Shown piece after piece: positions 534-27,765 of a stretch of DNA of 64,000 nucleotides. Below the pieces are notes generated by a model. That model ran no database searches, was not told the DNA's origin, and saw nothing but the letters and a program-made list of their open reading frames with translations. Origin of the DNA: Anaerohalosphaeraceae bacterium. GTDB taxonomy: Bacteria; Planctomycetota; Phycisphaerae; Sedimentisphaerales; Anaerohalosphaeraceae. A program made the position numbers and the translations under genes. Position 1 is the first letter of the stretch, and every line of letters begins with the position of its first letter. The stretch is taken from the NCBI GenBank assembly GCA_050309605.1, contig JBNRMN010000034.1, forward strand, positions 64,001-128,000. Reading direction: 5' to 3'.

Positions 534-1514
534 TCATCGGTTCAGCAGAAACAGATACGCAATATAGCCGCAATAACCGGCAAACAGCAATGCCCCCGCA
601 GGCCGACCGATACGCCGCTGCGTAAAGGCGATCACCGCGAAAATCAGCGAGACTGTCGCCATCAGCCAATAATCTGTTCCTGCCAGCCGACTGCTGATCT
701 CAAACGGCCTGACCAGACCGGCCGTGCCGGGTACCAGCAGGGCGTTAAAGATGTTCGAGCCGACCAGATTGCCGATAGACAGGTCGTCATGCCCTTTTAC
801 GGAGGCAACCAGGCAGGTACTCAACTCCGGCAGCGACGTGCCGACTGCGACGATGGTCAGGCCGATAACCGCCTCCGAGATACCTGCGGCACGTCCCAGC
901 ACCGAGGCGCTGAGCACCGTCAGATGTGCTCCGGCGGCCAGACAGCCCAGCCCCACAGCAAGCAAGATGACCGACAGCAGCAACGATCGAGGAATATGAG
1001 CTGCCGCTTGCTCGATCCGGGTTTCCAGTTCGCTTAAGACCTGGCGGTCGGCCAGTGCCCGAAGACGTTCGGAATGAACCATCAGTGCAAGGATGCCGCA
1101 AAACAAGAAAATCAACATCAAAGACTCAATCCGAGACAGACGGGTATCAAAAAAAACCAGCCACAGGGCCAATGTCGCGGCCAGCATCAAAGGCAGATCG
1201 CGCCGCAGTACGGCCCGTTGGACGACAATCGGACGTATCGCGGCGCATAACCCGGCCACAAGAGCCAGATTGGCGATATTGGAGCCATAGATGTTGCCCA
1301 CGGCGATGTCGCCGGAGCCTGACAGGGCAGCGGCAATGCTGGCGGCGACCTCAGGCGCTGAGGTGCCCATAGCCACAATCGTCAGGCCGATAATCAGCGG
1401 CGTCATTCCCAGCCGTTCAGCCAAAGCAACGGCGCCGTCCACCAGCCAGTCCGCCCCCTTGACGAGGACGGCGATGCCGACCGGCAACAGCACGATGGCC
1501 CAAAACAGCGACAT
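534..1514 (-). CDS. Calcium/sodium antiporter (YrbG/CaCA family)
   Basis: Two alpha repeats, GTSAPE..GNIYGSNIAN and GTSLPE..GNLVGSNIFN; highly hydrophobic. ATG at 1514, with an alternative TTG at 1520. Confidence 0.92.
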   Translation of the reverse strand: MSLFWAIVLLPVGIAVLVKGADWLVDGAVALAERLGMTPLIIGLTIVAMGTSAPEVAASIAAALSGSGDIAVGNIYGSNIANLALVAGLCAAIRPIVVQRAVLRRDLPLMLAATLALWLVFFDTRLSRIESLMLIFLFCGILALMVHSERLRALADRQVLSELETRIEQAAAHIPRSLLLSVILLAVGLGCLAAGAHLTVLSASVLGRAAGISEAVIGLTIVAVGTSLPELSTCLVASVKGHDDLSIGNLVGSNIFNALLVPGTAGLVRPFEISSRLAGTDYWLMATVSLIFAVIAFTQRRIGRPAGALLFAGYCGYIAYLFLLNR

Positions 1515-1531
1515 TGTCAAAACTCCCGATT

Positions 1532-1577
1532 AAAAAAACTCCGACCGTTCGGCCGGTCCGACCGTTCGGCCGGAGTT
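1532..1577 (-). terminator. Intrinsic terminator after fabF, containing a 17-nt tandem duplication
   Basis: Minus strand reads AACTCCGGCCG...CGGTCGGAGTT followed by a U-tract; TCCGACCGTTCGGCCGG is repeated at 1540-1556 and 1557-1573. Confidence 0.7.
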
Positions 1578-1628
1578 CTAAGATGCGTTTAATCCAGAAA
1601 CTGTTGCAATTAAAAACTCTCGGTCGGG

Positions 1629-2873
1629 CTACACCTTTCCGATGACCAGGCTGCAATTGTGGCCGCCAAATCCCAAGGAGTTGCTCAGCACAAAGCGGAC
1701 ATTCGCCGAGCGTGCCTCTTTGGGGACATAATCCATTTTCGGGTCGCAATCCGGAGCGATTTCGTCGAGATTTGCCGTCGGATGGATAATACCCTTTTCC
1801 ACCGTTTTGCAGCAGGCGATCAATTCAATAGCGCCGCTGGCGCCGAGTGTGTGCCCGACACAGCTTTTGGTTGAGTTGACGGCCAGCTTGTAGGCATGGT
1901 CGCCGAAAACATGCTTAATGGCCAAGCACTCGGCGGCGTCGTTCAATTGCGTACTGGTTCCATGGGCATTGACATAATCGATCTTTTCAGGATCCAGTCT
2001 GGCCTGATCCAGGGCAAGCTGCATGGCTTCGGCCGCGCCGGAACCGTCCTCAAGCGGGGCGGTGATATGATAGCCGTCGCCGGTCGCCCCATAACCGAGC
2101 AGCTCGGCGTAAATCTTCGCGCCGCGTTTTTTGGCGTGTTCGTATTCCTCAATAACCAGCACGCCGGCGCCTTCCGAAAGAACAAACCCGTCGCGGTCTT
2201 TGTCAAAGGGTCGCGATGCGCAGGTCGGCTCATCGTTTCGGGTGCTCAGGGACCGCAGGGCGCAGAAGGAAGCCAACCCGATCGGGGTCAGTGCCGCCTC
2301 CGAACCGCCGGTGATACACACATCACTGCGGCCGCTCAGCACATTCCAAAACGCCTCGCCGATGGCGTGACTGGCCGAAGCACAGGCTGTCACCACGCAT
2401 AAGTTCGGTCCTTTCAGCTCGAATTGAATGGAGATACAGCCGCTGGCGGCGTTGCCCATCAGTTTCGGTACGCAAAAAGGCGAGACCTTTCGCGGGCCTT
2501 TTTTCAGCAGTCGAATGTGCTGATCCTCGATTTCCTTGATGCCGCCGATACCCGTACCGATAATCACCCCGATACGTCGGCGGTCTTCTTTGTCGAAGTC
2601 CAATCCGCTGTCCCGGACGGCCTGAATCGCTGAGGCCAGAGCCATCTGCGTAAACCGATCCATCCGCTTGCCTTCGCGCACCCCGGCGTAGTTTTCGATA
2701 TTGAATTGTTTGATTTCACCGCCGATTTTAACCGGATACTGTGCGGTATCAAACGACTCAATCACGGAAATACCGCTGCGGGCCTGACAAAGCCCCTCAA
2801 ACAGCGATTCAGCCGATTCAGCCAGCGGCGTTACACATCCCAGGCCTGTTATAACAACACGACGTTCTGTCAT
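1629..2873 (-). CDS. fabF: Beta-ketoacyl-ACP synthase II
   Basis: RRVVITGLG, TACAS catalytic Cys, NAHGTST, KS.VGH.LGA and NSLGFGGHN motifs; fab operon context. Confidence 0.97.
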   Translation of the reverse strand: MTERRVVITGLGCVTPLAESAESLFEGLCQARSGISVIESFDTAQYPVKIGGEIKQFNIENYAGVREGKRMDRFTQMALASAIQAVRDSGLDFDKEDRRRIGVIIGTGIGGIKEIEDQHIRLLKKGPRKVSPFCVPKLMGNAASGCISIQFELKGPNLCVVTACASASHAIGEAFWNVLSGRSDVCITGGSEAALTPIGLASFCALRSLSTRNDEPTCASRPFDKDRDGFVLSEGAGVLVIEEYEHAKKRGAKIYAELLGYGATGDGYHITAPLEDGSGAAEAMQLALDQARLDPEKIDYVNAHGTSTQLNDAAECLAIKHVFGDHAYKLAVNSTKSCVGHTLGASGAIELIACCKTVEKGIIHPTANLDEIAPDCDPKMDYVPKEARSANVRFVLSNSLGFGGHNCSLVIGKV

Positions 2874-2888
2874 AGCGGTCCTGTGTGA

Positions 2889-3158
2889 TTATTGTTTTTC
2901 CTGCTGGCTTTTGGCAATTTCGACAATGTAGTCGATGGCGGCGCCGACGGTCTGAATCTTCTCGGCCTCTTCGTCCGGAATGCTCATATCAAACTCATCC
3001 TCGAACTCCATGACCAGCTCCACCGTATCCAATGAGTCGGCGTTCAGATCGTTGATGAACGACGTTTCGCGCGTAATCTCGGACTTGTCCACGCCCATTT
3101 GTTCGCTGACGATCTCAATGACTTTTGCCTCAATGGCTTGAACATCTACATCTGCCAC
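2889..3158 (-). CDS. acpP: Acyl carrier protein
   Basis: [14 protein letters not shown] phosphopantetheine motif; acidic protein; GTG start with AGGAG RBS. Confidence 0.97.
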
Positions 3159-3301
3159 TTTTATACTCCTTAAAAACGTATCCAGGTTTCTGTTTTTAAT
3201 CCGTTAAATTCCGCTAAAGTGTGATTTCACACGGGTTTCGGCGGTACTATACAGGCCGATTGAGCCGTTTTCAATCATTTTTTAACAAAAATATTGCCAA
3301 A

Positions 3302-4036
3302 TTACATAGCCATTCCGCCATCGACACAAAGCACCTGACCGGTAATATAGCCGGCTTCATCGGAGGCCAAAAAGGCCACCGCACGGGCTACTTCTTCAGG
3401 GGTGCCAAAGCGTTTGACCGGAATGACCGCCAGAGCGCCTTGTTTGACGGCATCGGGCAGGATCTCCGTCATATCGGTCATAATAAAGCCGGGGGCGATG
3501 CAATTGGCGGTGACGTTCTTTTTGCCGACTTCGCGGGCGATGGATTTGGTCATCCCGATCAATCCGGCCTTGCTGGCGGCGTAGTTGGCCGAGCCGGCCT
3601 GTCCCATTACGCCGGCCACCGAACTGATATTGATGATCCGACCGAATTTCTGCCGTACCATTGAGCGGGCCGCAACGCGCGTGGCGACAAACGCAGCCCT
3701 CAGATTGACGGCGATGACCTTATCAAAGTCGTCATCATCCATCTGAATCATCAGCTTATCGCGGGTAATACCGGCATTATTGACCAAAATACCGATGCCG
3801 CCGTGTTCATCAGCCAGACTGTCGAGTGTCTCGGTCAGTTTGTCGGTGTTTGTAATGTCCACACATCGTGTCAGCACGCTGTGGCCGGCTTCTTTCACAA
3901 TCGTTTCCAGTTCGGCCAATTGCTCGACATTCAAATCCAGCCCGGCCACCGTACGACCCTGCTTGAGCAATTCGAGCACGATGGCCCGCCCAATGCCGCG
4001 TGCGGCTCCGGTTACAACAGCTAAACGTTGCGTCAT
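3302..4036 (-). CDS. fabG: 3-oxoacyl-ACP reductase
   Basis: TGAARGIG, NNAGITRD and YAASK SDR motifs; fab context. Confidence 0.96.
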   Translation of the reverse strand: MTQRLAVVTGAARGIGRAIVLELLKQGRTVAGLDLNVEQLAELETIVKEAGHSVLTRCVDITNTDKLTETLDSLADEHGGIGILVNNAGITRDKLMIQMDDDDFDKVIAVNLRAAFVATRVAARSMVRQKFGRIINISSVAGVMGQAGSANYAASKAGLIGMTKSIAREVGKKNVTANCIAPGFIMTDMTEILPDAVKQGALAVIPVKRFGTPEEVARAVAFLASDEAGYITGQVLCVDGGMAM

Positions 4037-6082: not shown

Positions 6083-7085
6083 TGTTCGACACCGATGTTT
6101 TGGAAATTGCACTGACGATTTGCGTGTTGATTTTTTTATCATAAAACCGTTTGCAGGCGGAGATGGCGTTTTTAATGGTTCGGGCCTTGCTGGAGCCGTG
6201 GCAAATAATCGCCGTTCCGTTGACACCCAGCAGCAGTGCTCCGCCGTATTCATGGTAATCATATTTTTTGAAGATGCTCTTGGCTACAGACTTAAACCAC
6301 AGTGCCAGCAGCTTGTTGCGCGTCATCAACTCGGCCTTGATGGCCTTAAAAACCATATTGGCCATGCCCTCGGACAATTTTAGAATGACATTGCCGACGA
6401 AGCCTTCACAAATCACCACGTCGCACTTGCCCTCGAACAGATCGCGTCCTTCCAGATACCCGATATAATTCAGATTCGGATCGTTTTTCAGCAGCAGCCG
6501 CGTTTTTTTGATCAGGTCGGTTCCTTTGGCGTCTTCTTCGCCGATGTTCATCATTCCGATGCGCGGCGATTCGATGCCGAACATTTCACGTGCATAAACC
6601 CCGGCCATGATGGCATATTGGTACAAATGAATCGGCTTGCAGGCGATGTTGGCGCCGACGTCGCAAATGGTAACCGGCCCGCCATATGTCGGCAACACGA
6701 CGGCGATGCCCGGACGCGATACCCCTTCCAGCGTTCGCATTCGAATCTGACAGGCCGCGACACAAGCGCCGGTATTTCCGGCCGAAAGCACTGCGTCAAC
6801 CTGGCGGTGCGATGCAGCGTGGGCCATGACGGCAATCGAGCTTTTGGGCTTGCGCCGCAGCGATTCAATCGGCGACTCATTCATTCCAATCACATCGGGT
6901 GCCTGGAATATACGAAAGGTGTCCGCCGGCATTTTCAGCGCAATCAATTGGTCGCGGATCACGGATTCGTCGCCGACCAATACGATTTCATCGTCTTGAC
7001 CGAGGACATCCCTGCCCTGCAACGCCCCGGCGATAATTTCGCCGGGAGCATAATCGCCGCCCATAGCATCGATTGCGATGCGCAT
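6072..7085 (-). CDS. plsX: Phosphate acyltransferase
   Basis: IAIDAMGGDYAP, SAGNTGA and GF.GNVILK..EG motifs. Confidence 0.97.
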   Translation of the reverse strand: MRIAIDAMGGDYAPGEIIAGALQGRDVLGQDDEIVLVGDESVIRDQLIALKMPADTFRIFQAPDVIGMNESPIESLRRKPKSSIAVMAHAASHRQVDAVLSAGNTGACVAACQIRMRTLEGVSRPGIAVVLPTYGGPVTICDVGANIACKPIHLYQYAIMAGVYAREMFGIESPRIGMMNIGEEDAKGTDLIKKTRLLLKNDPNLNYIGYLEGRDLFEGKCDVVICEGFVGNVILKLSEGMANMVFKAIKAELMTRNKLLALWFKSVAKSIFKKYDYHEYGGALLLGVNGTAIICHGSSKARTIKNAISACKRFYDKKINTQIVSAISKTSVSNNGE

Positions 7086-7087
7086 CG

Positions 7088-7276
7088 TTAACTTTCGGCC
7101 TCCTCAGCGAACTTCAGCGTAATACTGTCGTTGAGGTATCCGCACTGGCCGCAGGCTGCGTGCGGCAGCTTGGCCGAGCCGCATTGCTTGCACAGTGAAT
7201 AATTGACCGGACGCAGTGCGTGATGAGCACGACGACTGCGCGTCTTGGCGCGACTGAGTTTCTTAACCGGAAGCAT
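7088..7276 (-). CDS. rpmF: 50S ribosomal protein L32
   Basis: Basic N-terminus; CxxC..HAACxxCGY zinc ribbon; directly upstream of plsX. Confidence 0.95.
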   Translation of the reverse strand: MLPVKKLSRAKTRSRRAHHALRPVNYSLCKQCGSAKLPHAACGQCGYLNDSITLKFAEEAES

Positions 7277-7677
7277 AGTTTCTGTTTACTCCACAAATTG
7301 TATAACGCGGTTATTGGTACTGTCCGTTCGTCTTAATGGGTTTATACTCCTTTTTTGCTGTACCGGACGATGTCCCCGGAACGGCCGAAAATCAAAAAAA
7401 GCCCGCCTGGAAGTCCTATTTCTATATCAGACCGGGGGCTTTCCGTAAAGCAAAAACCACATAAAAAAAAGAATCTATAACGTCTCGAACCCCCGCTGTC
7501 AAGACAATAACGCAAAACATTCCACAAAATATGGAATTTATTTGAAAGATTCCGATTGAAAAGCCGTAAGAAATATTGTAGATTACAGACCTTTGGGACT
7601 GAGCCGCGGAGCTGATATGCAGGGTGATGACGCCGAGAAACGGATATATCGGACTTACTGAAGGGATTGTTTGAATT

Positions 7678-18308: not shown

Positions 18309-19124
18309 TTATGCGGTTTTTACCGCGACGAACAAAGCCTGGATGATTTTGCCCTCGCGGGCCAGTTTTTCCATGGCGGCCATCTCTTTGCCGATGGTGT
18401 TGAGCAGGGTCTGGTCAAAGCCGATAATTTTCAGGGCGTCATACGTAAGCTGCGTACCGACCATTTTTTGATAGAGTTCCACATGGTCGGCAAAGCGGCC
18501 GGTGTCTTCCAGGTGCTTGACGGTGCAGCCGCTTTGTTCAAGCAGAGCGGCGTATCCGCTGCGGCTCTGAAGGTTGGGGAATTTCATAAACGCCAGTGTC
18601 CGCTGCAATTCCTCGGCGGTCATCGGCACATCGCCGAGCACCCAGTCGGTAAAGGCAATCGTACCGCCGGGGCGGACGATGCGGCAGGCCTCGGCAATCA
18701 TCGTGTCTTTGTCTTCCACATAGCACCAGGCGTCCTCGCCCCAGACGAAATCGGCGCTGGCAGCGGCAAGTCCGCTATTGCAGACATCGGCCAGGACAAA
18801 CTGAATCTTATCGTCAGAATGTTCTTCCTGGCAACGTTTTTTACCCAGTTCGACCATCGCTGCTGTGGCATCAACGCCGGTCATGGCGGCGACGCCGCAG
18901 AACCGCACGAGGAAGCGCATCCCTGCGCCGCTGCAGCAGCAGAAATCCACGCCTTTGGTACCGGGCTGAATTGCGGCCTTCTTGGCCAGATCCATCGACG
19001 AGGTCAATCCGCCGATATGAATCTGCTCGCCCATGAGCAATTCCCAGAGTTTGCCTTCGGGGCCGCTATAAACCGTTTGAACCGCTGCCAGCGGACTGTT
19101 TGATTGTTGTGCTGTTTGCTTCAT
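18309..19124 (-). CDS. Class I SAM-dependent methyltransferase (sarcosine/sterol MTase-like fold)
   Basis: GEQIHIGG, motif I variant VDFCCCSGAG, GVDAT, ADV and RIVRPGG.IAFTDW. Confidence 0.9.
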   Translation of the reverse strand: MKQTAQQSNSPLAAVQTVYSGPEGKLWELLMGEQIHIGGLTSSMDLAKKAAIQPGTKGVDFCCCSGAGMRFLVRFCGVAAMTGVDATAAMVELGKKRCQEEHSDDKIQFVLADVCNSGLAAASADFVWGEDAWCYVEDKDTMIAEACRIVRPGGTIAFTDWVLGDVPMTAEELQRTLAFMKFPNLQSRSGYAALLEQSGCTVKHLEDTGRFADHVELYQKMVGTQLTYDALKIIGFDQTLLNTIGKEMAAMEKLAREGKIIQALFVAVKTA

Positions 19125-19140
19125 TGTGTAATCCGTTGAT

Positions 19141-19174
19141 AAAAAAAGCGGGCCGAAACTGTTTTTCGACCCGC
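19141..19174 (-). terminator. Intrinsic terminator between the small Sec ORF and the methyltransferase
   Basis: Minus strand GCGGGUCGAAA-AACAG-UUUCGGCCCGC followed by U7 (11-bp stem). Confidence 0.8.
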
Positions 19175-19203
19175 CGATACTTGCTCTGTTGTGTGAGGAC
19201 TGC

Positions 19204-19464
19204 TTATCGCGTCAACTCCTCAATCGAATACCATCGGTTTTCCTGGTGGACGGTAAACGGTCCGGAATCGATGTCGATTTCGATGCGGAACCGCCTGCGG
19301 AAGTCCTCTGGCACTCGCCACGAGTACCGGCAGGTGCTGCCTCACCCATACTCCATAGAGCCGGTGCGCAGGAAACCGCCGTCTTCAAGCCGAGCTGTTT
19401 CGAAGTTTGTATAGAAAAACGAATAGCCAGGAGATTGCGAATGTTTTTTTTCGATTCCCGTCAT
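19204..19464 (-). CDS. Putative small soluble selenoprotein, 86 aa, U41-x3-C45 (absent from the ORF track)
   Basis: MTGIEKKHSQSPGYSFFYTNFETARLEDGGFLRTGSMEYG-U-GSTCRYSWRVPEDFRRRFRIEIDIDSGPFTVHQENRWYSIEELTR*. TGA at 19344-19342; the frame stays open to TAA 19204; SECIS-like hairpin; divergent from selAB. Confidence 0.78.
19310..19328 (-). promoter_or_regulatory. Bacterial SECIS-like hairpin
   Basis: GGUACUCG-UGG-CGAGUGCC, 13 nt after the UGA; G-containing apical loop. Confidence 0.75.
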
Positions 19465-19636
19465 GACTCCGATTCCAATGTGTCCGTCAATTCTTTAAAG
19501 ACGTTTGCCGTACGACGGTGTTACGAAGATTTTTGTTATTTTTTACCGTTTTAACAGAAAAAAAGCAAGCGGATTCAACGACATTTTTGTATTGTACAAA
19601 AAAAGCACAAAATGTCTTGAATTTAAGTGTCTTGGC

Positions 19637-19664
19637 TTGCTTTTTGGGCGGATCGGCGTACAAT
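19637..19664 (+). promoter_or_regulatory. Candidate sigma70 promoter for selAB
   Basis: TTGCTT-N16-TACAAT, about 46 nt upstream of the selA ATG, in an AT-rich divergent region. Confidence 0.45.
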
Positions 19665-19710
19665 AACATCGCAGGCAGGGACTGATTGATCGGACTACGA
19701 AAGGCGGCTT

Positions 19711-21111
19711 ATGGAAGCACAGATTCAGGCGCAGCTTCGGCAGATTCCTTCGGTGGATGCGGTGTTATCGCAGATTCAGGCACATCCGGCGGCCCGGCGT
19801 GTGGGTGCGGCGATGCGGACGCAACTGGTGCGCGAGGTGATTGAGACAATCCGCCGGCAGGTGCGGGACGGGACATTTTCAGCCGATGCCGATATGGCCG
19901 GGGCGGTGCGGGACCGGATCGAGCGGCGACTGGAAGCGGTGGCGGGGGTGTTTTATCGACGGGTGGTCAATGCGGCCGGGATCATTCTGCACACCGGACT
20001 GGGACGGGCGCCGCTGGCGGGTGAGGTCCTGGAGCAGATCAGCTGGCAGTTGGGCGGGTATTCGCTGTTGCAGGTGGATGTCGAGGCGGGCAAGCGGTCC
20101 TCGCGAGATGGACGGATTGAAGACTTGCTCAAACTGCTGACCGGCGCCGAAGCGGCGACCGTGGTGAATAATAACGCCGCGGCCACGGCGCTGGTGCTGA
20201 ACACCATTGCCGCAGGCAAAGAGGTCATCGTGTCGCGCGGACAGCTCGTCGAGATCGGCGGGGCGTTTCGCCTGCCGGACGTGATGGCCTTTAGCGGGGC
20301 CAGGCTGGTCGAGGTGGGTACCACCAACAAGACGCACCTGCGGGATTATGAGAATGCGATTACCGAAAACACCGCCGCGATTTTGCGGGTGCATCCGAGC
20401 AATTATAAGATTACGGGTTTTACGAGCGAAGTGCCGCTGGAGGAGATGGTCAAGCTGGCCCACGCCAACGGCCTTTTGCTGTTTGATGATGTCGGGGCCG
20501 GGTCGCTGATTGATTTTTCGCGATTTGGATTTGAAAAAGAGCCGACGTTGATGGAATCGGTCGCCGCCGGGGCCGATGTGATTACCTCCAGCGGCGACAA
20601 ACTCATCGGGGCCTCTCAGGCGGGGATCGTCCTTGGCCGTGCCGAAATCATCCAGAAGGTGCGCAAAAATCAATTTGCGCGGATCGTGCGGGTCGATAAG
20701 TTTACGCTGGCGGCGTTGGAGGCGACGCTGAAATTGTTTCTGGATGAGGCGGCGGTGTTGGAAAAGGTGCCCGCCTTGCGGCTGATGCTGCGTTCGGCGG
20801 AGGAGATTCAGCGGCAGGCCGAGCGCATCTGCGAACGGGTGCAGAGGGCCTGCCCTGATGCGTGCGTCTCACTGCTGCCGGGCCAGTCGCAAATCGGAAG
20901 CGGCTCACTGCCCGGACAAAACCTGCCGACGACCCTGGTGGCAATTGCGTCGCCGCATCAATCCGCTGCGGCACTGGCCGACACGCTGCGGGGCGCTGCG
21001 ACGCCGGTCTTTACGCGCATCGGCGATGATCGTGTGCTGATTGACCCGCGCACGCTGCTGGACGGCGATGAGGCGATTTTGATTGAGACGCTGGTTGAAA
21101 TTCTGCATTAA
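19711..21111 (+). CDS. selA: L-seryl-tRNA(Sec) selenium transferase
   Basis: VVNA.G.ILHT.LGRAPL, VNNNAAA, SRGQLVEIGG.FR.PDVM, EVGTTN.TH and SGDKL.G (PLP Lys). Confidence 0.97.
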   Translation: MEAQIQAQLRQIPSVDAVLSQIQAHPAARRVGAAMRTQLVREVIETIRRQVRDGTFSADADMAGAVRDRIERRLEAVAGVFYRRVVNAAGIILHTGLGRAPLAGEVLEQISWQLGGYSLLQVDVEAGKRSSRDGRIEDLLKLLTGAEAATVVNNNAAATALVLNTIAAGKEVIVSRGQLVEIGGAFRLPDVMAFSGARLVEVGTTNKTHLRDYENAITENTAAILRVHPSNYKITGFTSEVPLEEMVKLAHANGLLLFDDVGAGSLIDFSRFGFEKEPTLMESVAAGADVITSSGDKLIGASQAGIVLGRAEIIQKVRKNQFARIVRVDKFTLAALEATLKLFLDEAAVLEKVPALRLMLRSAEEIQRQAERICERVQRACPDACVSLLPGQSQIGSGSLPGQNLPTTLVAIASPHQSAAALADTLRGAATPVFTRIGDDRVLIDPRTLLDGDEAILIETLVEILH

Positions 21112-21148
21112 AACAAACCATGAAGATCGTTTCAAGACATTATGCTCC

Positions 21149-21176
21149 GAACTAAGAACTACGAACTAAAAACTCC
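21149..21176 (+). repeat. Four imperfect heptamer repeats (GAACTAA GAACTAC GAACTAA AAACTCC)
   Basis: Read directly in the selA-selB spacer. Confidence 0.6.
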
Positions 21177-21181
21177 GAATT

Positions 21182-23089
21182 ATGACCCAAATCAACATCA
21201 CTCTCGGCACCGCCGGGCATATTGACCACGGCAAGACGGCGTTGATCCGCTTGCTGACCGGCTGTGAGACCGACCGGCTCAAGGTCGAAAAACAGCGTGG
21301 CATGAGCATTGAGCTGGGCTTTGCCCCGTGTCTGCTGGGGGATAGGGAGGTGGGGATCGTCGATGTCCCCGGACACGAACATTTCATCAAGACGATGGTC
21401 GCCGGCGCCGCGGGCATTGACGGAGTGCTGTTTGTCGTGGCCGCCGATGACGGGATTATGCCTCAGACGCGCGAGCATCTGGAGATTTTGACCCTGCTGG
21501 GCGTGCGGCACGGCCTGACCGTCCTGACCAAGATCGATCGTGTTTCGGAGGAGCGCGTCGAGGCAGCGATCGATGAACTCCGAACGTTTTTGTGCGGCAC
21601 GTTTTTGCATGATGCCCCGATTTGCCCGATGTCCAGCATCACCGGGCAGGGATTCGACGGATTCTATACGGCGTTGAAAGATGTGGTCGCTTCCATATGC
21701 CCCAAAAGCATTGACGGGGTGTTTCGTCTGCCGGTGGAACGGGCGTTTTCGGTCAAGGGCTTCGGCACAGTGCTCAGCGGCATCCCCGCCGCCGGTTCGG
21801 CACAGATCGGCCAGGAAGTCGTCCTGCTGCCGAGCGGACAAACCGGACGCATCAAGGCGATACAGGTTTACGGCAAGCCGTCCGAATACGTGCGAAGCGG
21901 CCAGTGTGCGGCGCTGAATATCCCGCAGATGGATTATCGTACTATCCGACGGGGCGACGTGTTGACGGTAGAGGGGTATTTTTCTCCGACGCAGTGGTTT
22001 TTGTGTGCCGCCGCGGTGCTGCCCGGTCAGTCGCTGCCTGTTAAAAACGGTGCTGAGATGAGGTTCCACACCGGCACGGCGGATGTTGCGGCCAATGTTT
22101 ATCGTGTTGAGCGAGACGAGTACTTTGCCGACGGCGACTTCCTGCTTCAGATTCGTGCGCATACGCCGCTTGTGGCCGCCCCCGGCGACCGGTTTATCCT
22201 GCGGTCGCTGTCGCCGATGCGTACCGTCGGCGGGGGGCGCATCCTTCAGGCGATGTCATCGCGTCTTCGGTATGCTCACGGGCGGGGGCCGGCCTATGCC
22301 AAAGCACTGGCCGAGGCGCAGCGGAATGAAACGGCATTTGTCGCTTTTGCGGTGGAATCGGCGGCGTCCGGCGTCGCACGGCTTGATGATCTCACGTCGT
22401 TTACCAAGCAGAAGCCTGAGCGGGTGCGGCGGCTGCTGGCGGATTTGCTGCAGACACAAACCGTTGTCGCTTTGTCCGGCGATGTGTATATCCACGCCCG
22501 AAAACTGTCGGTGATGTGCCGGCACATCACCGAAACGCTTGAGCAGTTTCACGCCGACCATCCCGAACGGCCGGGCATGGATGCGGAAGCTTTAGCCGAG
22601 CGGCTTGAACTGGGCAAAGGCGTTTTTGATGCCCTGCTGGAAGTTGCCCTGAAACAAGGGACGGTCGTGCGGCGTCTGGATCGGCTGGCACTGCCGTCGC
22701 ACACCGAAACCTGCAATCCGGCTCTGGCAAAACGGCTCCGGCAAATCGAAACAGCGTTCCTGAAAAACCTGTTTGCTCCTCCCGGCCTCAATGAACTGAC
22801 GGCCGAGTCCGGCCTGACCCCATCACAAATCCGGGAGGCCATTACGATTTTGATCGAACAGAAAAAACTATTTTATGTGGACCGAACGATGGTATTCCAC
22901 GCCGAGGCCGTAAAGCAGGCCAAACGCCGTATTGCCGAGCATATTCAGGGCCAAGGGCGGGGCCGTCTGGAAAGCGTCGCATTCAAATACTTGATTGATA
23001 CGACCCGAAAATACGCCATTCCGCTGCTGGATTATATGGACAAAATCGGCTTTACCCGTCGGGTCGGCAATACACGTTACTTGAAATAA
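21182..23089 (+). CDS. selB: Selenocysteine-specific elongation factor
   Basis: GTAGHIDHGKT, RGMSIELGF, DVPGHEHF and TKID; C-terminal winged helix TRKYAIPLLDY (SECIS binding). Confidence 0.97.
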   Translation: MTQINITLGTAGHIDHGKTALIRLLTGCETDRLKVEKQRGMSIELGFAPCLLGDREVGIVDVPGHEHFIKTMVAGAAGIDGVLFVVAADDGIMPQTREHLEILTLLGVRHGLTVLTKIDRVSEERVEAAIDELRTFLCGTFLHDAPICPMSSITGQGFDGFYTALKDVVASICPKSIDGVFRLPVERAFSVKGFGTVLSGIPAAGSAQIGQEVVLLPSGQTGRIKAIQVYGKPSEYVRSGQCAALNIPQMDYRTIRRGDVLTVEGYFSPTQWFLCAAAVLPGQSLPVKNGAEMRFHTGTADVAANVYRVERDEYFADGDFLLQIRAHTPLVAAPGDRFILRSLSPMRTVGGGRILQAMSSRLRYAHGRGPAYAKALAEAQRNETAFVAFAVESAASGVARLDDLTSFTKQKPERVRRLLADLLQTQTVVALSGDVYIHARKLSVMCRHITETLEQFHADHPERPGMDAEALAERLELGKGVFDALLEVALKQGTVVRRLDRLALPSHTETCNPALAKRLRQIETAFLKNLFAPPGLNELTAESGLTPSQIREAITILIEQKKLFYVDRTMVFHAEAVKQAKRRIAEHIQGQGRGRLESVAFKYLIDTTRKYAIPLLDYMDKIGFTRRVGNTRYLK

Positions 23090-23141
23090 GTCTGCTTGAA
23101 TCCATCGGCAAAAAAGGATATATTGGTCAAGAGAGGTGTTT

Positions 23142-23402
23142 ATGCGATACGGTGCAATTTCTGCCAAACTGTTGGCGCTGGGGGTGGGCAGTTTCGTCGT
23201 GCTGGTGGTTCTTCAGCCGGGGTGAGGCAATCCCTTTGGAGTGCTTGGAGCACTCCTGATGATGGTTAGTATGCCGCTGGCGCTGGTCTTCGGCGTTATC
23301 GGCGTGTTTCTGGACAAACCCCGCTGGCCGGCGATCATTGCCGCGCTGATTGCATTGCTCTTGCTGTTGCCGGTCGTGATGAACCTGGCCGGCTGGTGCT
23401 AA
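23142..23402 (+). CDS. Putative small three-TM membrane selenoprotein, 86 aa, U28 and C-terminal C86 (absent from the ORF track)
   Basis: GAGGTG RBS. MRYGAISAKLLALGVGSFVVLVVLQPG-U-GNPFGVLGALLMMVSMPLALVFGVIGVFLDKPRWPAIIAALIALLLLLPVVMNLAGWC*. TGA at 23223-23225; membrane-protein composition continues across the UGA; SECIS-like hairpin; immediately after selB. Confidence 0.8.
23238..23256 (+). promoter_or_regulatory. Bacterial SECIS-like hairpin
   Basis: GGAGUGCU-UGG-AGCACUCC, a perfect 8-bp stem 12 nt after the UGA. Confidence 0.78.
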
Positions 23403-23404
23403 GG

Positions 23405-25996
23405 TCAACGGCTTTCAAAGGTGCGCCCGCCGGAGCCGACCGATTCAATGACCCACCAGCCGTCCGATTGGACGGCCTCAGTCGGTTTGCCGTTCATCAG
23501 CACGGCCGGGCGGTCGCTGTGCTGAACGGGCAGATATACCTCTGCGGTCATATTGGCCGGCAGGGTGATGTCCAGTTCAAAGGTCCCCGCCGTATCGCGA
23601 AAGGCCGCCTCGATAGTCCCCCGAATCGTCGGAAGCCTGAGCTGTGCCCATTCCAGCCCGCCGGTTTGCGGACGGATGCGAATGCGACCGTAACCGGCCT
23701 CGATCGGTTCAATGCCGAACAGTCGGCGGGGGATGATATTGAGCGGGGCACTGGCCCATGGGTGGGCATAGCTCATATTGGGCTTGCCGGACGGATCCCA
23801 TGACTCAGTGGTGATAGTCGCGCCGAGGTGATGGATCATATGATGCCAGGAATGTTTCTCGGTCGAGGTCATCAGTGCCAGCGCCGCATCACCGCGGTCG
23901 GCGTTATACAGCGCATCGAGCAGGTATTGCGCCCCATACACGCTGCAAACCATTCCTTTCTCGATCAGAAACTGAGCCACTAACTTTTTGCGTTCCGGCG
24001 GCGTGACCGTCAGCGCCAGCGGAAAGAAGTTCGCATGAGCAGCGCTGTGGGCGCTGTCGCGTCCGTCGCGATAGATACCGGATTGTGCATCGAACAGATG
24101 GGTGTTTATTGCATTTTTGACCTGCTCGGCTGCGGCGGCGTAACGAGTTGGGTCGTTGGTTTTATCCAATACGCCGGCGATGCGGCTGAGCAGCTCCACG
24201 GCCTTATAATGAAAGGCATTCGTTACGGTGTTGATCGGCGTAAATTCATAGCCGTCGCGATAATACGCCGGCCAATCCACCAGCACGCGGTCGTTGTCGC
24301 TGTCGTGTTTTTCGACCAGTCCCTGTTCATTGACAAAATCGCACAGCGTTTTGGTCGTCAGGATATCATAGTGTCGGCGAATGGATTTTGCGTCGCCGGT
24401 GGCCATATAATCGGCCCAGGCCATCAGCAGGCAGGTTTGCTTGTACTCGGTCGGCCAGGTCGGGCGATGATACAGGTATTCGTTGGTATAACGGGCAAAC
24501 GCATATTCACGATCCGCCGCGTAATGGGAGAGCATATTGATGTAGGCGTCGCCCTCATACGGGCCGCGCTCGCGTGTCGGACAGTCCTGATACAGGTCGA
24601 TGTTGGTCGCCTTGATGCTGTAATGGCATAAGTCCCAGACTTCATTCAGGATGGTACTGGAACTGTCAAAGGCCGCCGCGTCCTGATCAAACGGATACTC
24701 AAGCGTCACAGTGCTCAGCACGAAGTCATCCGTCGGCAGGTTCAGCAGCTCGCCGTAGCGAAACCCGCGATAGCCGAAGTTCTCGATCACTTGCAGCCCG
24801 TCGCGCAGCGTCCATTTCTCGGCATAGGTAACGCCCGTGCGGGCTTGGTGACGAACGGTCTTATCGCCGTCCAGCTCTTCGCCGAGGCGTACTTCGATCT
24901 GTCGTCCGTTCGTGCCTTCAATGGACAGACGCACACACCCGACAATCTCCCTACCAAAATCAAAGAAATAATGCCCTTCGCTTTTTTTGTGCATCAGGAC
25001 GGGCTTGACCTCTTCCATTTGCACATTGCGAATCGGCTGAGCAACCAGTCGCTCGGCATAATGCGGTACGGTGCGCACCGAACGCCAGCCGCTGTCGTCA
25101 AAGTCGGTCCTCAGCCAGCCGTGCGGTTCATTGCGGGCGTCGATATGTTCCGGGCCGGCCTCGTAATACCAAAAAAACTTCGGCCCCATATTATAATAAG
25201 GATCGGCGTTGATCCCCCGCCACGTATCGTCTGTGCCGAATGTGCCGACGGCGTCGTCTTTGTAGAAGACTTTGATCTCGGCGATAAAATCTTTGGCGCG
25301 ACCATTGGAAAAACAGATGGCCCCCAGCACATGACTCGTTCCGGCGGTCAAATGCTCAGTGATATCGAAAACGTTGTAGGGCACCTTGCCGTCGTAGCCT
25401 CGCGCCGGCCCAATGCCGATGGGTGTGTCGTTGACATAGAATTTGAAGACATACTGGCGCGACGGATGGGTATCGCGCCCGCTGACAAATGCGAACGCCT
25501 TCTCGATGGGTTTGTCAGGCAGTTCTATCGTATCGCGCAGGAACACATATTTATTTTCTGCCGCTGCCCAGATCGGACGGGCGGACCAGGTGTCTTTCAG
25601 TGCCGTGACGAACAATTGCGGCTCGGCATACGGCCCCGGCTGGTTTCTGTTGTTCCAGGTCCGAACCGTCCACCGGTACATCCGCCCGGGTTGCAGTTCC
25701 GGCCCGGCATACGGCACGGCAATCGACCGCGGCGAAGCGACTTTGCCGGAATCCCACACCAGCGTCCGCTTGCTGCTGAGGCCGGTATAGACCTGAATCT
25801 GATAAGCCGTCTGCACGGCGTCAGGCTGCGGGTCGTTGACAATCCAGGAAAACGCCGGCGTAAAATCCTCAATTCCCAGCGGCTCGGGGTTTAAGTCACA
25901 CAGCAAACCCGTCGGTTGTTGCGGCGGTCTGGCACACCCGCAGGCCGCCAACAGCGTACCGGCCAAGAGAACCTTACAGCAGTGTCTTAAGTTCAT
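23405..25996 (-). CDS. Alpha-L-rhamnosidase (GH78), probable lipoprotein
   Basis: P.FSW..Q.AYQI..WDSGKV, DFG.E..G, YRGFRY, DCPTRER..Y.GD, ATITTESW and SYAHPW; lipobox LAAC. Start is 25996 or 26008. Confidence 0.92.
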   Translation of the reverse strand: MNLRHCCKVLLAGTLLAACGCARPPQQPTGLLCDLNPEPLGIEDFTPAFSWIVNDPQPDAVQTAYQIQVYTGLSSKRTLVWDSGKVASPRSIAVPYAGPELQPGRMYRWTVRTWNNRNQPGPYAEPQLFVTALKDTWSARPIWAAAENKYVFLRDTIELPDKPIEKAFAFVSGRDTHPSRQYVFKFYVNDTPIGIGPARGYDGKVPYNVFDITEHLTAGTSHVLGAICFSNGRAKDFIAEIKVFYKDDAVGTFGTDDTWRGINADPYYNMGPKFFWYYEAGPEHIDARNEPHGWLRTDFDDSGWRSVRTVPHYAERLVAQPIRNVQMEEVKPVLMHKKSEGHYFFDFGREIVGCVRLSIEGTNGRQIEVRLGEELDGDKTVRHQARTGVTYAEKWTLRDGLQVIENFGYRGFRYGELLNLPTDDFVLSTVTLEYPFDQDAAAFDSSSTILNEVWDLCHYSIKATNIDLYQDCPTRERGPYEGDAYINMLSHYAADREYAFARYTNEYLYHRPTWPTEYKQTCLLMAWADYMATGDAKSIRRHYDILTTKTLCDFVNEQGLVEKHDSDNDRVLVDWPAYYRDGYEFTPINTVTNAFHYKAVELLSRIAGVLDKTNDPTRYAAAAEQVKNAINTHLFDAQSGIYRDGRDSAHSAAHANFFPLALTVTPPERKKLVAQFLIEKGMVCSVYGAQYLLDALYNADRGDAALALMTSTEKHSWHHMIHHLGATITTESWDPSGKPNMSYAHPWASAPLNIIPRRLFGIEPIEAGYGRIRIRPQTGGLEWAQLRLPTIRGTIEAAFRDTAGTFELDITLPANMTAEVYLPVQHSDRPAVLMNGKPTEAVQSDGWWVIESVGSGGRTFESR

Positions 25997-26406
25997 AAAA
26001 AACCTCATTGTACATCTTTAATCGTAAGTCTTGATTGCTTTCAGAGTATAACGCAAAAATCCTGTGGTGTCCAATGACTCGCACGCACCGCCGGTTCTTT
26101 TCAAAAAGTCCAAACGGATACCGCCGATACCGCGTCAGCCGGACTGGGAGGTGGAATCTGATTATGGGACGATGTTAAAAAAGTTTTGTTGCACAGCGGC
26201 CCCAAAGGGCTTGTGGATGGATCTTTTATCGGAAGTAAGTTGGCTTATGTCTTTTTTATACAGCAACTTGTATATTTTTTCGAAAAGTGTATCACGGTTG
26301 TTGATATGTTTAAGTTAGCCCGAAGACCGGTTTGACCGATACAACGGCGTAACGTAATTTTTACGAAGGGAAAGGTCTCGCAAGCGTGTCTTGAAAGTCG
26401 ATAACA

Positions 26407-27765
26407 ATGAGCCGAATGAACTGGACAATTCTGGCATTGATGCTGATGATCCCCGGTGCAGTGGGTCTGGGGTGGGGGACGATGCAAAATCGCCAAGCCG
26501 CCCGGCGGATCGTTCAAGCCGCCGGGACGATTGAGCAGGCCCCTTCAGCCGACGAATATCTTGCTATGTATGCCCAGTGGTCACAGCTGTCGCCTGCGGA
26601 GAAAGCTGAAAACCCTTGGGGGCAGGGTCCATACGGCGGAGCCGACATACAAAAGCGGCTGCGAGAACATCAGCAGCCGCGTCTTGAGGCGGATTTGCCC
26701 GATCTTGACGCGGGACTGAAGACATACCCGCCCCAGCTTGCCGATGTGTTATACGGTCCGGGCTGGGAGCAGCGGCTGGCCGATTTCCAGCGCGCGCGTG
26801 AAATACGCAATCTGGTGACGACCGCATCAGGGATTTTGTTGTTTGCGGGGGGGTTGCTGTTTTGCGGCGGACTGGTCCGATATGCGGTCGTACGAGTTCT
26901 GTATAAAGAGCAAACCGAGCAGATGTCAGAGGAAATCCAGGCATTTGAGGATACCGAGATGAACAATAAGGGCGTCAAAGAACCCGCCGGCAAGGGGTCG
27001 GATCGTCCATCCGCTTCGGCCATGGCGCAAACGCCGGACGCTCCGGTCAAACCCGCCGTGAAGTCCGCTGATAGCTGCGGCTATTTTGAATCCACGGAGA
27101 ACCATCAAAAACAGGCCGTGAAGTCCGCTATGTCCACACCGATGCCTGCTGCCCAACCTTCGGGCGACTTCGCGGCGTCGGTGTCTCTGGTTGATTCGTC
27201 TTCGGCGCCGCAGAGCCGGTCGTATTTTGGCTGGGAAATGGATACCCAGGAAGAGGATCCGGCGATCTCGACGCTGATGACGACACACCCCGTTACTCAT
27301 GAACTGACGGAGTTGACCGAAGAAGTCTCGGCCATTCGTCAATACGCCGCCGCTCAGCAGGATCAAATCCGTAAGTTCCAGGATGGGTATGACTGGATGA
27401 TCATCCGTCGGTTTTGTATGCGGATCATTCGCTGTATTGACAATCTGGACGACCGGCTGGCCAAACTTGACCCGGAAGAACAAACCCTGCAAGGCTGTCT
27501 GGAAGACATTCGGGATGAATTGATTTTTGCGCTGGAGTCCAGCGGTGTTGAGCAGTTCAGTCCCGATGTGAAGACGCCTTTCAAAGGGCTTGAAAAATAC
27601 GTCGAGGCAGTGCATCAGCGGGTTCCTGTTTCGAATGCGGATTGGGCGGGAACCATTGCCGAGATTGTTCGCCCCGGCTATCAATATCTGATCAACGATG
27701 ACGAGGTAAAAATTGTGCGTTGTGCACAGGTCAAACTGTACGACGCAGCGGAAACTGAAGCATAA
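26407..27765 (+). CDS. Membrane-anchored GrpE-like nucleotide exchange factor
   Basis: C-terminal coiled coil, 'IDNLDDRL', 'LESSGVEQF.P' and 'I.EIVRPGY...VR.AQVKL' (GrpE head); two N-terminal hydrophobic segments; upstream of Hsp70. Confidence 0.75.
   Translation: MSRMNWTILALMLMIPGAVGLGWGTMQNRQAARRIVQAAGTIEQAPSADEYLAMYAQWSQLSPAEKAENPWGQGPYGGADIQKRLREHQQPRLEADLPDLDAGLKTYPPQLADVLYGPGWEQRLADFQRAREIRNLVTTASGILLFAGGLLFCGGLVRYAVVRVLYKEQTEQMSEEIQAFEDTEMNNKGVKEPAGKGSDRPSASAMAQTPDAPVKPAVKSADSCGYFESTENHQKQAVKSAMSTPMPAAQPSGDFAASVSLVDSSSAPQSRSYFGWEMDTQEEDPAISTLMTTHPVTHELTELTEEVSAIRQYAAAQQDQIRKFQDGYDWMIIRRFCMRIIRCIDNLDDRLAKLDPEEQTLQGCLEDIRDELIFALESSGVEQFSPDVKTPFKGLEKYVEAVHQRVPVSNADWAGTIAEIVRPGYQYLINDDEVKIVRCAQVKLYDAAETEA

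Follow-up and report, generated by a model that had tools for sequence, protein, structure and literature searches.

Gene layout behind selB

The subject of this analysis is a small open reading frame (ORF) that follows the selenocysteine-specific elongation factor gene selB in a planctomycete of the Anaerohalosphaeraceae (GenBank assembly GCA_050309605.1). The stretch of DNA analysed, referred to as the window, comprises 64,000 nucleotides (nt) of contig JBNRMN010000034.1 (positions 64,001 to 128,000), and the features of the locus are listed in Table 1. The ORF contains an in-frame TGA and is very probably a real gene whose 86-residue product has three transmembrane helices. UGA codon 28 would be recoded as selenocysteine (Sec) by means of a selenocysteine insertion sequence (SECIS) located within the coding sequence; the product would be the founding member of an uncatalogued family. 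By comparison of sequences, the gene is a conserved third gene of the selA-selB cluster in Sedimentisphaerales-type Phycisphaerae (phylum Planctomycetota).

The three genes of the cluster lie on the same strand, with gaps of 70 nt between selA and selB and 52 nt between selB and the small ORF, which runs from an ATG at 23142 to a TAA at 23400-23402 and has Cys86 as its final residue; a convergent alpha-L-rhamnosidase gene ends at 23405, just past it. A preliminary description of this DNA, made from the letters of the window, had pointed to the position directly after selB, a ribosome-binding site, the in-frame TGA at codon 28, the terminal cysteine, and a perfect 8-bp hairpin beginning 12 nt past the TGA, and all of these were found where they had been placed. 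The genome encodes the complete Sec set (selA, selB, tRNA-Sec and selD): selA and selB are in the window, and the tRNA-Sec gene is about 600 nt after selD on contig C64.

Table 1. Features of the selA-selB cluster and of the small gene behind it, in window coordinates.
Feature	Position	Strand	Basis
selA, L-seryl-tRNA(Sec) selenium transferase, cluster gene 1	19711..21111	+	Pfam PF03841, E 1.2e-140
selB, selenocysteine-specific elongation factor	21182..23089	+	Pfam GTP_EFTU and SelB winged-helix domains; TIGR00475, 323.6 bits, above cut-off
Weak sigma-70-like match TTGAAT-17-TATATT in the gap between selB and the ORF, status uncertain	23096..23124	+	Consensus match
Shine-Dalgarno-like AGAGAGG, 5 nt 5' of the ATG	23130..23136	+	Read from the sequence
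Coding sequence of 86-residue three-helix membrane selenoprotein (predicted)	23142..23402	+	Translation, homologues, codon-position variation, AlphaFold2
UGA codon 28, loop motif Q-P-G-U-G-N-P	23223..23225	+	Same alignment column in homologues
SECIS-type hairpin, 8-bp stem 23238-23245/23249-23256, UGG loop 23246-23248	23238..23256	+	Fold, covariation, bSECIS constraints

In contigs of three other studies that cover this stretch, the TGA is unchanged, and the sole substitution within the ORF is the synonymous 23174 G>A (TTG to TTA). The sigma-70-like site agrees with the consensus at 9 of 12 positions, and three such sites occur in 4.7 kb where 2.2 are expected; judged from its sequence, it is a consensus match only and no evidence of a promoter.

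Conservation of the UGA codon, the hairpin and the reading frame

When 61 related genomes were searched in six frames through stops, all 14 matches with E < 1e-3 were found to hold exactly one TGA, at identities from 99% down to 27%. A profile of 41 rows detected a homologue in 111 genomes of a 401-genome sample of the order, with the TGA in 142 of the 148 matches listed. A phylum-wide sample, likewise of 401 genomes, gave matches in ten, of which eight contain the TGA, one has it just upstream of the matched part, and one is spurious. From all collected loci, 71 distinct genes were excised; 67 contain the TGA, and in 66 of these, hereafter called Sec forms, it falls in a single alignment column. 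The motif surrounding it is [QRKE]-P-G-U-G-[NSD]-P, most commonly RPGUGNP (18), QPGUGNP (12) or KPGUGNP (7), and the residues G-N-P after Sec are conserved at 90%, 71% and 97%, respectively. A DNA pattern scan of named genome records yielded at least 23 true members among the 121 sites listed, most of which are chance matches; the record titles of the true members are Anaerohalosphaeraceae, Sedimentisphaerales, Phycisphaerae, Planctomycetota, 'Pirellulales' and, in one case, Anaerolineales. The gene is present in the record of an Anaerohalosphaeraceae isolate (locus L058). The TGA occupies the same column across two bacterial families and, on the evidence of these alignments, is not a nonsense mutation.

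The arms of the hairpin in the window, GGAGTGCT and AGCACTCC, form eight perfect pairs around the loop TGG (UGG in the transcript), which begins 20 nt past the UGA; the folding energy of the hairpin on its own is -12.9 kcal/mol. With its 8-bp stem, its UGG loop (second base G, then G), its 20-nt spacing and its folding energy, the element conforms to all four constraints of the consensus bSECIS model as given in section 5 of a 2026 review (PMC13188914). Covariation was computed for 38 distinct sequences that include 6 nt on the 5' side of the TGA and 45 nt on its 3' side and align without gaps. The 8-pair helix is paired in 93.4% of cells, compared to 70.0 +/- 1.7 in shuffles (0 of 500 shuffles reach the observed value), double-sided changes are found in 65 helix cells, compared to 17.1 in shuffles, and compensatory changes are found in all eight pairs; in a control with the 3' arm slid by 1-3 columns, pairing is 39-56%. 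The stems include GGAGTGC/GCACTCC, GCAACAC/GTGTTGC, GTATCGC/GCGATAC and ACAACCC/GGGTTGT. Of the seven inner pairs, all seven form in 39 of the 66 Sec forms and six in another 17, and the loop is TTGGA in 49, TTGCA in 7 and TTGTA in 6. The covariation and the agreement with the bSECIS constraints argue that the hairpin is a SECIS element, the role suggested for it at the outset. An Rfam scan of positions 19000-27000 at E <= 10 returned nothing but three chance matches to microRNA and small RNA models.

The reading frame was followed past the TGA by computing pairwise differences at codon positions 1/2/3 for the 59 Sec forms in which the TGA is codon 28. The values are 0.42/0.33/0.65 in codons 2-27 before the UGA, 0.25/0.15/0.46 in the spacer after it (codons 29-32), 0.31/0.32/0.38 across the hairpin (codons 33-39), and 0.47/0.29/0.64 in codons 40-60. 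The spacer varies like coding sequence, and the flat profile across the hairpin is as expected under the added constraint of an overlapping RNA structure. A permissive motif resembling a ribosome-binding site is present 5' of 44 of the 66 Sec forms. Independent translation from the in-frame ATGs at 23259 and 23262, downstream of the TGA, had been named in advance as a finding that would speak against recoding; an in-frame ATG within 21 codons past the TGA is present in only 27 of the 66 Sec forms and absent from 39, and such a start is therefore not conserved. An antisense ORF of 93 codons that is open in the window was rejected as the coding frame, being open in only 10 of the 66, and the codon-position variation fits the plus-strand frame.

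With the presence of selB defined as a TIGR00475 match above cut-off, the order sample of 401 genomes comprises 92 with both selB and the ORF, 19 with each of the two alone, and 271 with neither; among the 61 relatives, 12 have both, one has the ORF alone, three have selB alone and 45 have neither. Where both are present (92 genomes), the ORF directly follows selB on the same strand in 64, its start being 1.8-2.4 kb after that of selB; in three more it is within 5 kb of selB, and in 25 it is on a different contig or at another place. Of the 111 genomes with a homologue, 31 have at least two copies, frequently arranged in tandem. The downstream neighbours vary by lineage (a BlaI/BlaR1-like pair, MatE, PNP_UDP_1, MlaD, glycosidases), and among the neighbours scanned there is no conserved downstream partner; selB is the only conserved linkage. 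In one branch of the order (loci L039, L043, L072, L156-L160, L162 and L172), genes for a BlaI-like repressor and a BlaR1-like (Peptidase_M56) membrane protease are located 3' of the small gene on the same strand, an arrangement that may be lineage-specific synteny.

A profile search of 1.84 billion protein representatives found 114 proteins at E <= 0.001, about 70 of which are C-terminal fragments that start after the TGA because gene callers truncate Sec forms at this codon. Several of the 44 full-length representatives read combine Trp at the Sec position with the pattern C-x(1,2)-W close to the C-terminus. One of these, P0002, is a letter-for-letter table-4 translation of the L155 gene, including a second Trp at the real stop, so its Trp reflects the code chosen by the gene caller; the C-x(1,2)-W pattern recurs in P0004, P0012, P0015 and P0031, three of them with read-through tails. 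Most 'Trp' forms in the database are TGA forms translated by table 4.

Genuine forms without TGA number four among the 71 distinct genes: two have Leu (TTA), one Trp (TGG) and one Phe (TTC). The two Leu forms and the Trp form each stand beside a Sec form, as tandem pairs immediately behind selB (L183, G721:C106; L184, G569:C5; L188, G625:C8); their codons TTA and TGG are each one base from TGA, and their hairpins have five of the seven pairs compared to a mode of seven. The divergent Phe form stands alone, and its hairpin has none of the seven pairs. The preliminary description had held that homologues with Trp or another residue at codon 28 would indicate a simple nonsense mutation. Such homologues do exist, but they are a minority with degraded hairpins, and all four are read here as derived copies that would have lost Sec and the SECIS element together.

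Several results weigh against the interpretation of this gene as the founder of a selenoprotein family. The main weakness is that the pairing of Sec with Cys is rare: Cys is at the Sec position in none of the 71 distinct genomic members, and is aligned with Sec (by the anchor G-x-P) in only two of the 44 full-length representatives, P0086 and P0092. Other database representatives carry Leu, Arg, Gly, Glu, Val or Ala at this position, so the selenol is not indispensable for every member. The rarity of the Sec/Cys pairing also suggests a scaffold that functions in its own right and to which the selenol was added. As for the hairpin, a 56-nt stretch folds at -17.3 kcal/mol with z = -0.99, and 32 of 200 shuffles fold equally well; the fold of the single sequence is not beyond chance, and the case for the hairpin is comparative. 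In the covariation set, 20 of the 38 sequences came from a search pattern in which the TGA, the TTGGA loop and part of the motif were fixed but the stems were left free. The 2x2 tables of selB and the ORF overstate significance because related genomes are not independent, and their P value is given no weight. Of the 19 genomes of the order that have the ORF without a selB match, most are fragmented, at 73-94% completeness, and in several genomes of this kind the ORF is at a contig end where selB would stand. A Cys is found within the last 6 residues of 32, and the last 12 residues of 37, of the 66 Sec forms. Finally, contig X4 from another study (depth 4.8) has an extra T behind 23360 that would shift the last 14 codons; this insertion may be an assembly error. 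As a separate lead only, one representative of the Cys form is fused to a C-terminal DUF922 domain.

The predicted protein, its possible function and alternative readings

An AlphaFold2 model based on the 41-row alignment predicts helices at residues 3-24, 31-57 and 61-85 (mean predicted local distance difference test score, pLDDT, of 78.8), in agreement with the three transmembrane helices first proposed. The number of Lys and Arg residues per protein, averaged over 57 proteins, is 1.86 at the N-terminus, 0.54 in the Sec loop, 2.46 in loop 2 and 0.51 at the C-terminus, which by the positive-inside rule indicates that the N-terminus is inside, loop 1 outside, loop 2 inside and the C-terminus outside. 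The earlier placement of U28 and C86 on the same outer face fits this predicted topology. Sec would then be in a tight, proline-flanked P-G-U-G-N-P turn at the outer face of the cytoplasmic membrane. Outside the Sec motif, conservation is strongest at G51, G54, D58 and K61, around the predicted cytoplasmic loop: among the 59 in-register Sec forms, G54 is conserved at 93% and D58 at 90%, and D58 is invariant in alignments A1 and A2. The most conserved segment, G-x-x-G-x-x-x-D-x-[RK]-K-x-L-A, lies between helices 2 and 3 and probably faces the cytoplasm. A Foldseek search of the PDB with the AlphaFold2 model gave no match at E <= 0.001, the best rows being designed helical bundles.

A reading of the product as a lipoprotein in which Sec replaces the lipidated Cys (L-Q-P-G-U) was considered and rejected. 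The lipobox consensus after a signal peptide is [LVI][ASTVI][GAS]-C; Sec is preceded by [QRKE]-P-G in 57 of the 66 Sec forms, and the polar or charged residue at -3 and the Pro at -2 do not fit this consensus.

In the proposed mechanism, translation would run on from the selAB cluster into the small gene, or would begin from a weak promoter-like site belonging to that gene; SelB, once attached to the hairpin, would deliver Sec-tRNA(Sec) to UGA-28; and the product would be inserted with its N-terminus inside and its G-U-G turn flanked by a proline on either side at the outer face. The preferred function, held with well under even confidence, is that of a membrane-anchored selenol that forms selenium-sulfur or selenium-selenium adducts at the outer face, in thiol or chalcogen exchange and possibly in the capture of selenium and its hand-over to the Sec pathway. 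Almost as likely, the protein is a plain client selenoprotein kept beside its decoding machinery. A distinctly less probable role is that of an accessory part of the Sec machinery, in which either the selenol at the outer face captures selenium in Se-Se or Se-S adducts and passes it inward, or the ratio of full-length to UGA-terminated product reports the selenium supply; either role would explain the retention of the gene as the third of the selAB cluster across two bacterial families. According to section 4 of the review cited above (PMC13188914), a specific high-affinity transport system for selenium has yet to be identified in prokaryotes.

The preliminary description went further and proposed that U28 and C86 form a selenenyl-sulfide or metal-binding pair on the outer face. 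That this pair is the functional core of a real selenoprotein is unlikely, though far from fanciful: both residues are predicted to be on the outer side by the distribution of Lys and Arg and the three helices, and a Cys is among the last 1-3 residues of 10 of the 13 closest homologues, being common in the clade of the window. Because only about half of the members have a Cys at the C-terminus, as counted above, the pair is not a family-wide core on the sequences compared here.

A more radical alternative is that the UGA is a true stop and the hairpin a SelB-binding regulatory site at the 3' end of selAB, serving autoregulation or the titration of SelB, with flanking frames that encode short peptides or are not functional as one protein. 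Such a site would accord with the frequent position of the element at the end of the selA-selB cluster, with the SECIS-like regulatory element of E. coli selAB, and with the weak promoter-like site in the gap after selB. It is nevertheless very unlikely, given that the four codons after the UGA vary like coding sequence, that G-N-P is conserved immediately beyond it, that the segment past the UGA holds the most conserved residues of the family (G54 and D58), that most Sec forms lack an internal ATG, and that the gene is found away from selB in more than a quarter of the genomes with both and in multiple copies in some.

It is scarcely credible that the UGA is read through without Sec, by an alternative code in which TGA is Trp or Gly or by near-cognate suppression. 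Database entries with Trp or Gly at the Sec position could be cited for this, but P0002 and the four representatives with the same pattern bear the marks of table-4 translation, and the gene tracks selB and has a covarying hairpin of SECIS geometry. Moreover, the terminal stop codon of 40 of the 66 family genes is also TGA, so TGA is an ordinary stop and not a sense codon in these genomes. A pseudogene or chance ORF, whether a small membrane protein gene hit by a nonsense mutation or the complement of a real antisense gene, might be imagined from the existence of paralogues without TGA and from the 93-codon antisense frame, but has a negligible probability in view of a TGA column kept across two bacterial families at identities down to about 27%, an antisense frame that is seldom open, and codon-position variation that fits the plus strand.

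Other candidate selenoproteins and comparison with known systems

Three further ORFs with TGA in the same genome share the geometry of UGA-GGC followed by a stem of 7-8 bp whose UGG loop lies at 21 nt. Another candidate selenoprotein gene, the second in the window (19207-19464, minus strand, TGA at 19342-19344), is divergent from selA, and its 86-residue product would contain the motif E-Y-G-U-G-S-T-C...S-W-R-V-P; an 8-bp stem is capped by a UGG loop 21 nt past the TGA, and the gene has promoter-like (19618-19591) and terminator-like (19175-19147) sites of its own. It has no NCBIfam match. Among the 61 relatives, the TGA is present in all 49 matches listed for this candidate, which is matched in 18 genomes, including all 15 that are selB-positive, and many of the copies are a few kb from selB. 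On contig C2 (locus L032) of the same genome, ORFs 805-3693 and 6319-7473, with TGAs at contig positions 25974 and 30624, both contain a G-U-G-G-x-C...SWR domain with the same SECIS geometry as the second candidate. Their products, of 963 residues with a Laminin_G_3 domain and of 385 residues with a signal-like N-terminus and a multi-helix membrane part, have no match to selenoprotein models in Pfam or NCBIfam. No molybdopterin-type (FdhA-like) formate dehydrogenase gene and no Rdx (SelW-like) gene were found in the genome, and there is no in-frame stop in its selD, AhpC/TSA peroxiredoxin or Thioredoxin_3 genes. Uncatalogued families may make up most of the selenoproteome of this lineage.

The small membrane protein and the second TGA-containing domain family of the window, likewise uncatalogued, may keep the Sec trait alive in these anaerobic planctomycetes. 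The family of the small protein is invisible in annotation because gene callers either cut it at the TGA or read it by table 4. Its fixed place behind selB offers a testable link between a membrane protein and the use of selenium, and its Leu (TTA) and Trp (TGG) paralogues with decaying hairpins provide a natural example of the joint loss of a Sec codon and a SECIS element.

The gene had been described as unannotated, which agrees with the searches of family models: a Pfam scan of the window gave no family match for the small protein at E <= 0.01, and a search of NCBIfam release 20 with four family members at E <= 10 gave only matches to unrelated transporter models, far below threshold. Table 1 of the 2026 review (PMC13188914), which compiles Haft & Tolstoy 2025 and lists 119 selenoprotein families and subfamilies, has no entry with a fitting motif or architecture. 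A full-text literature search found no mention of Planctomycetota with a selenoprotein gene downstream of selB; the deep-Sep and BSepDB supplements may list the family. The known membrane selenoproteins MerT-like, YeeE/YedE, SaoP and SO_0444 are, as the sources consulted present them, different families.

Like the canonical bacterial selenoprotein genes, of which E. coli fdhF is the archetype, the gene in the window has an in-frame UGA and, past it but still within the coding sequence, a stem-loop, and it would likewise require selA, selB, selC and selD, all of which are present in its genome. Unlike the canonical selenoproteins, the predicted protein is tiny, has three helices and no thioredoxin-like fold, and lacks UxxC and CxxU motifs; its Cys homologues are rare, its paralogues without Sec have Leu or Trp, and its gene is itself within the selAB cluster.

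MerT proteins have about three helices and relay a soft metal through thiols. The MerT-like 'putative mercuric transport protein' selenoprotein (PF02411) has the motif C/SxxU (Table 1 of PMC13188914). The protein predicted here is similarly a small integral membrane protein, but it does not match PF02411, has P-G-U-G-N-P in a loop rather than C/SxxU, and lacks a cytoplasmic pair of Cys residues; no mer genes were found among the neighbours scanned. YeeE/YedE proteins are linked to the transport of sulfur and selenium compounds. The selenoprotein form of these transporters (PF04143) has the motif GUxSG (Table 1 of PMC13188914), and resembles the predicted protein in being a membrane protein with Sec beside Gly in a short motif. 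YeeE/YedE proteins are large multi-helix transporters, however, whereas the predicted protein has 86 residues, three helices and no Pfam match.

The selAB operon of E. coli is regulated by a SECIS-like element that binds SelB, is located at the 5' end, contains no decoded UGA, and represses translation. The hairpin in the window is likewise a SelB-type hairpin, by prediction, on a selAB transcript, but it is at the 3' end and follows an in-frame UGA within a conserved coding gene. The decoding mechanism is a standard one; the novelty lies in the family and in its position within the selAB cluster.

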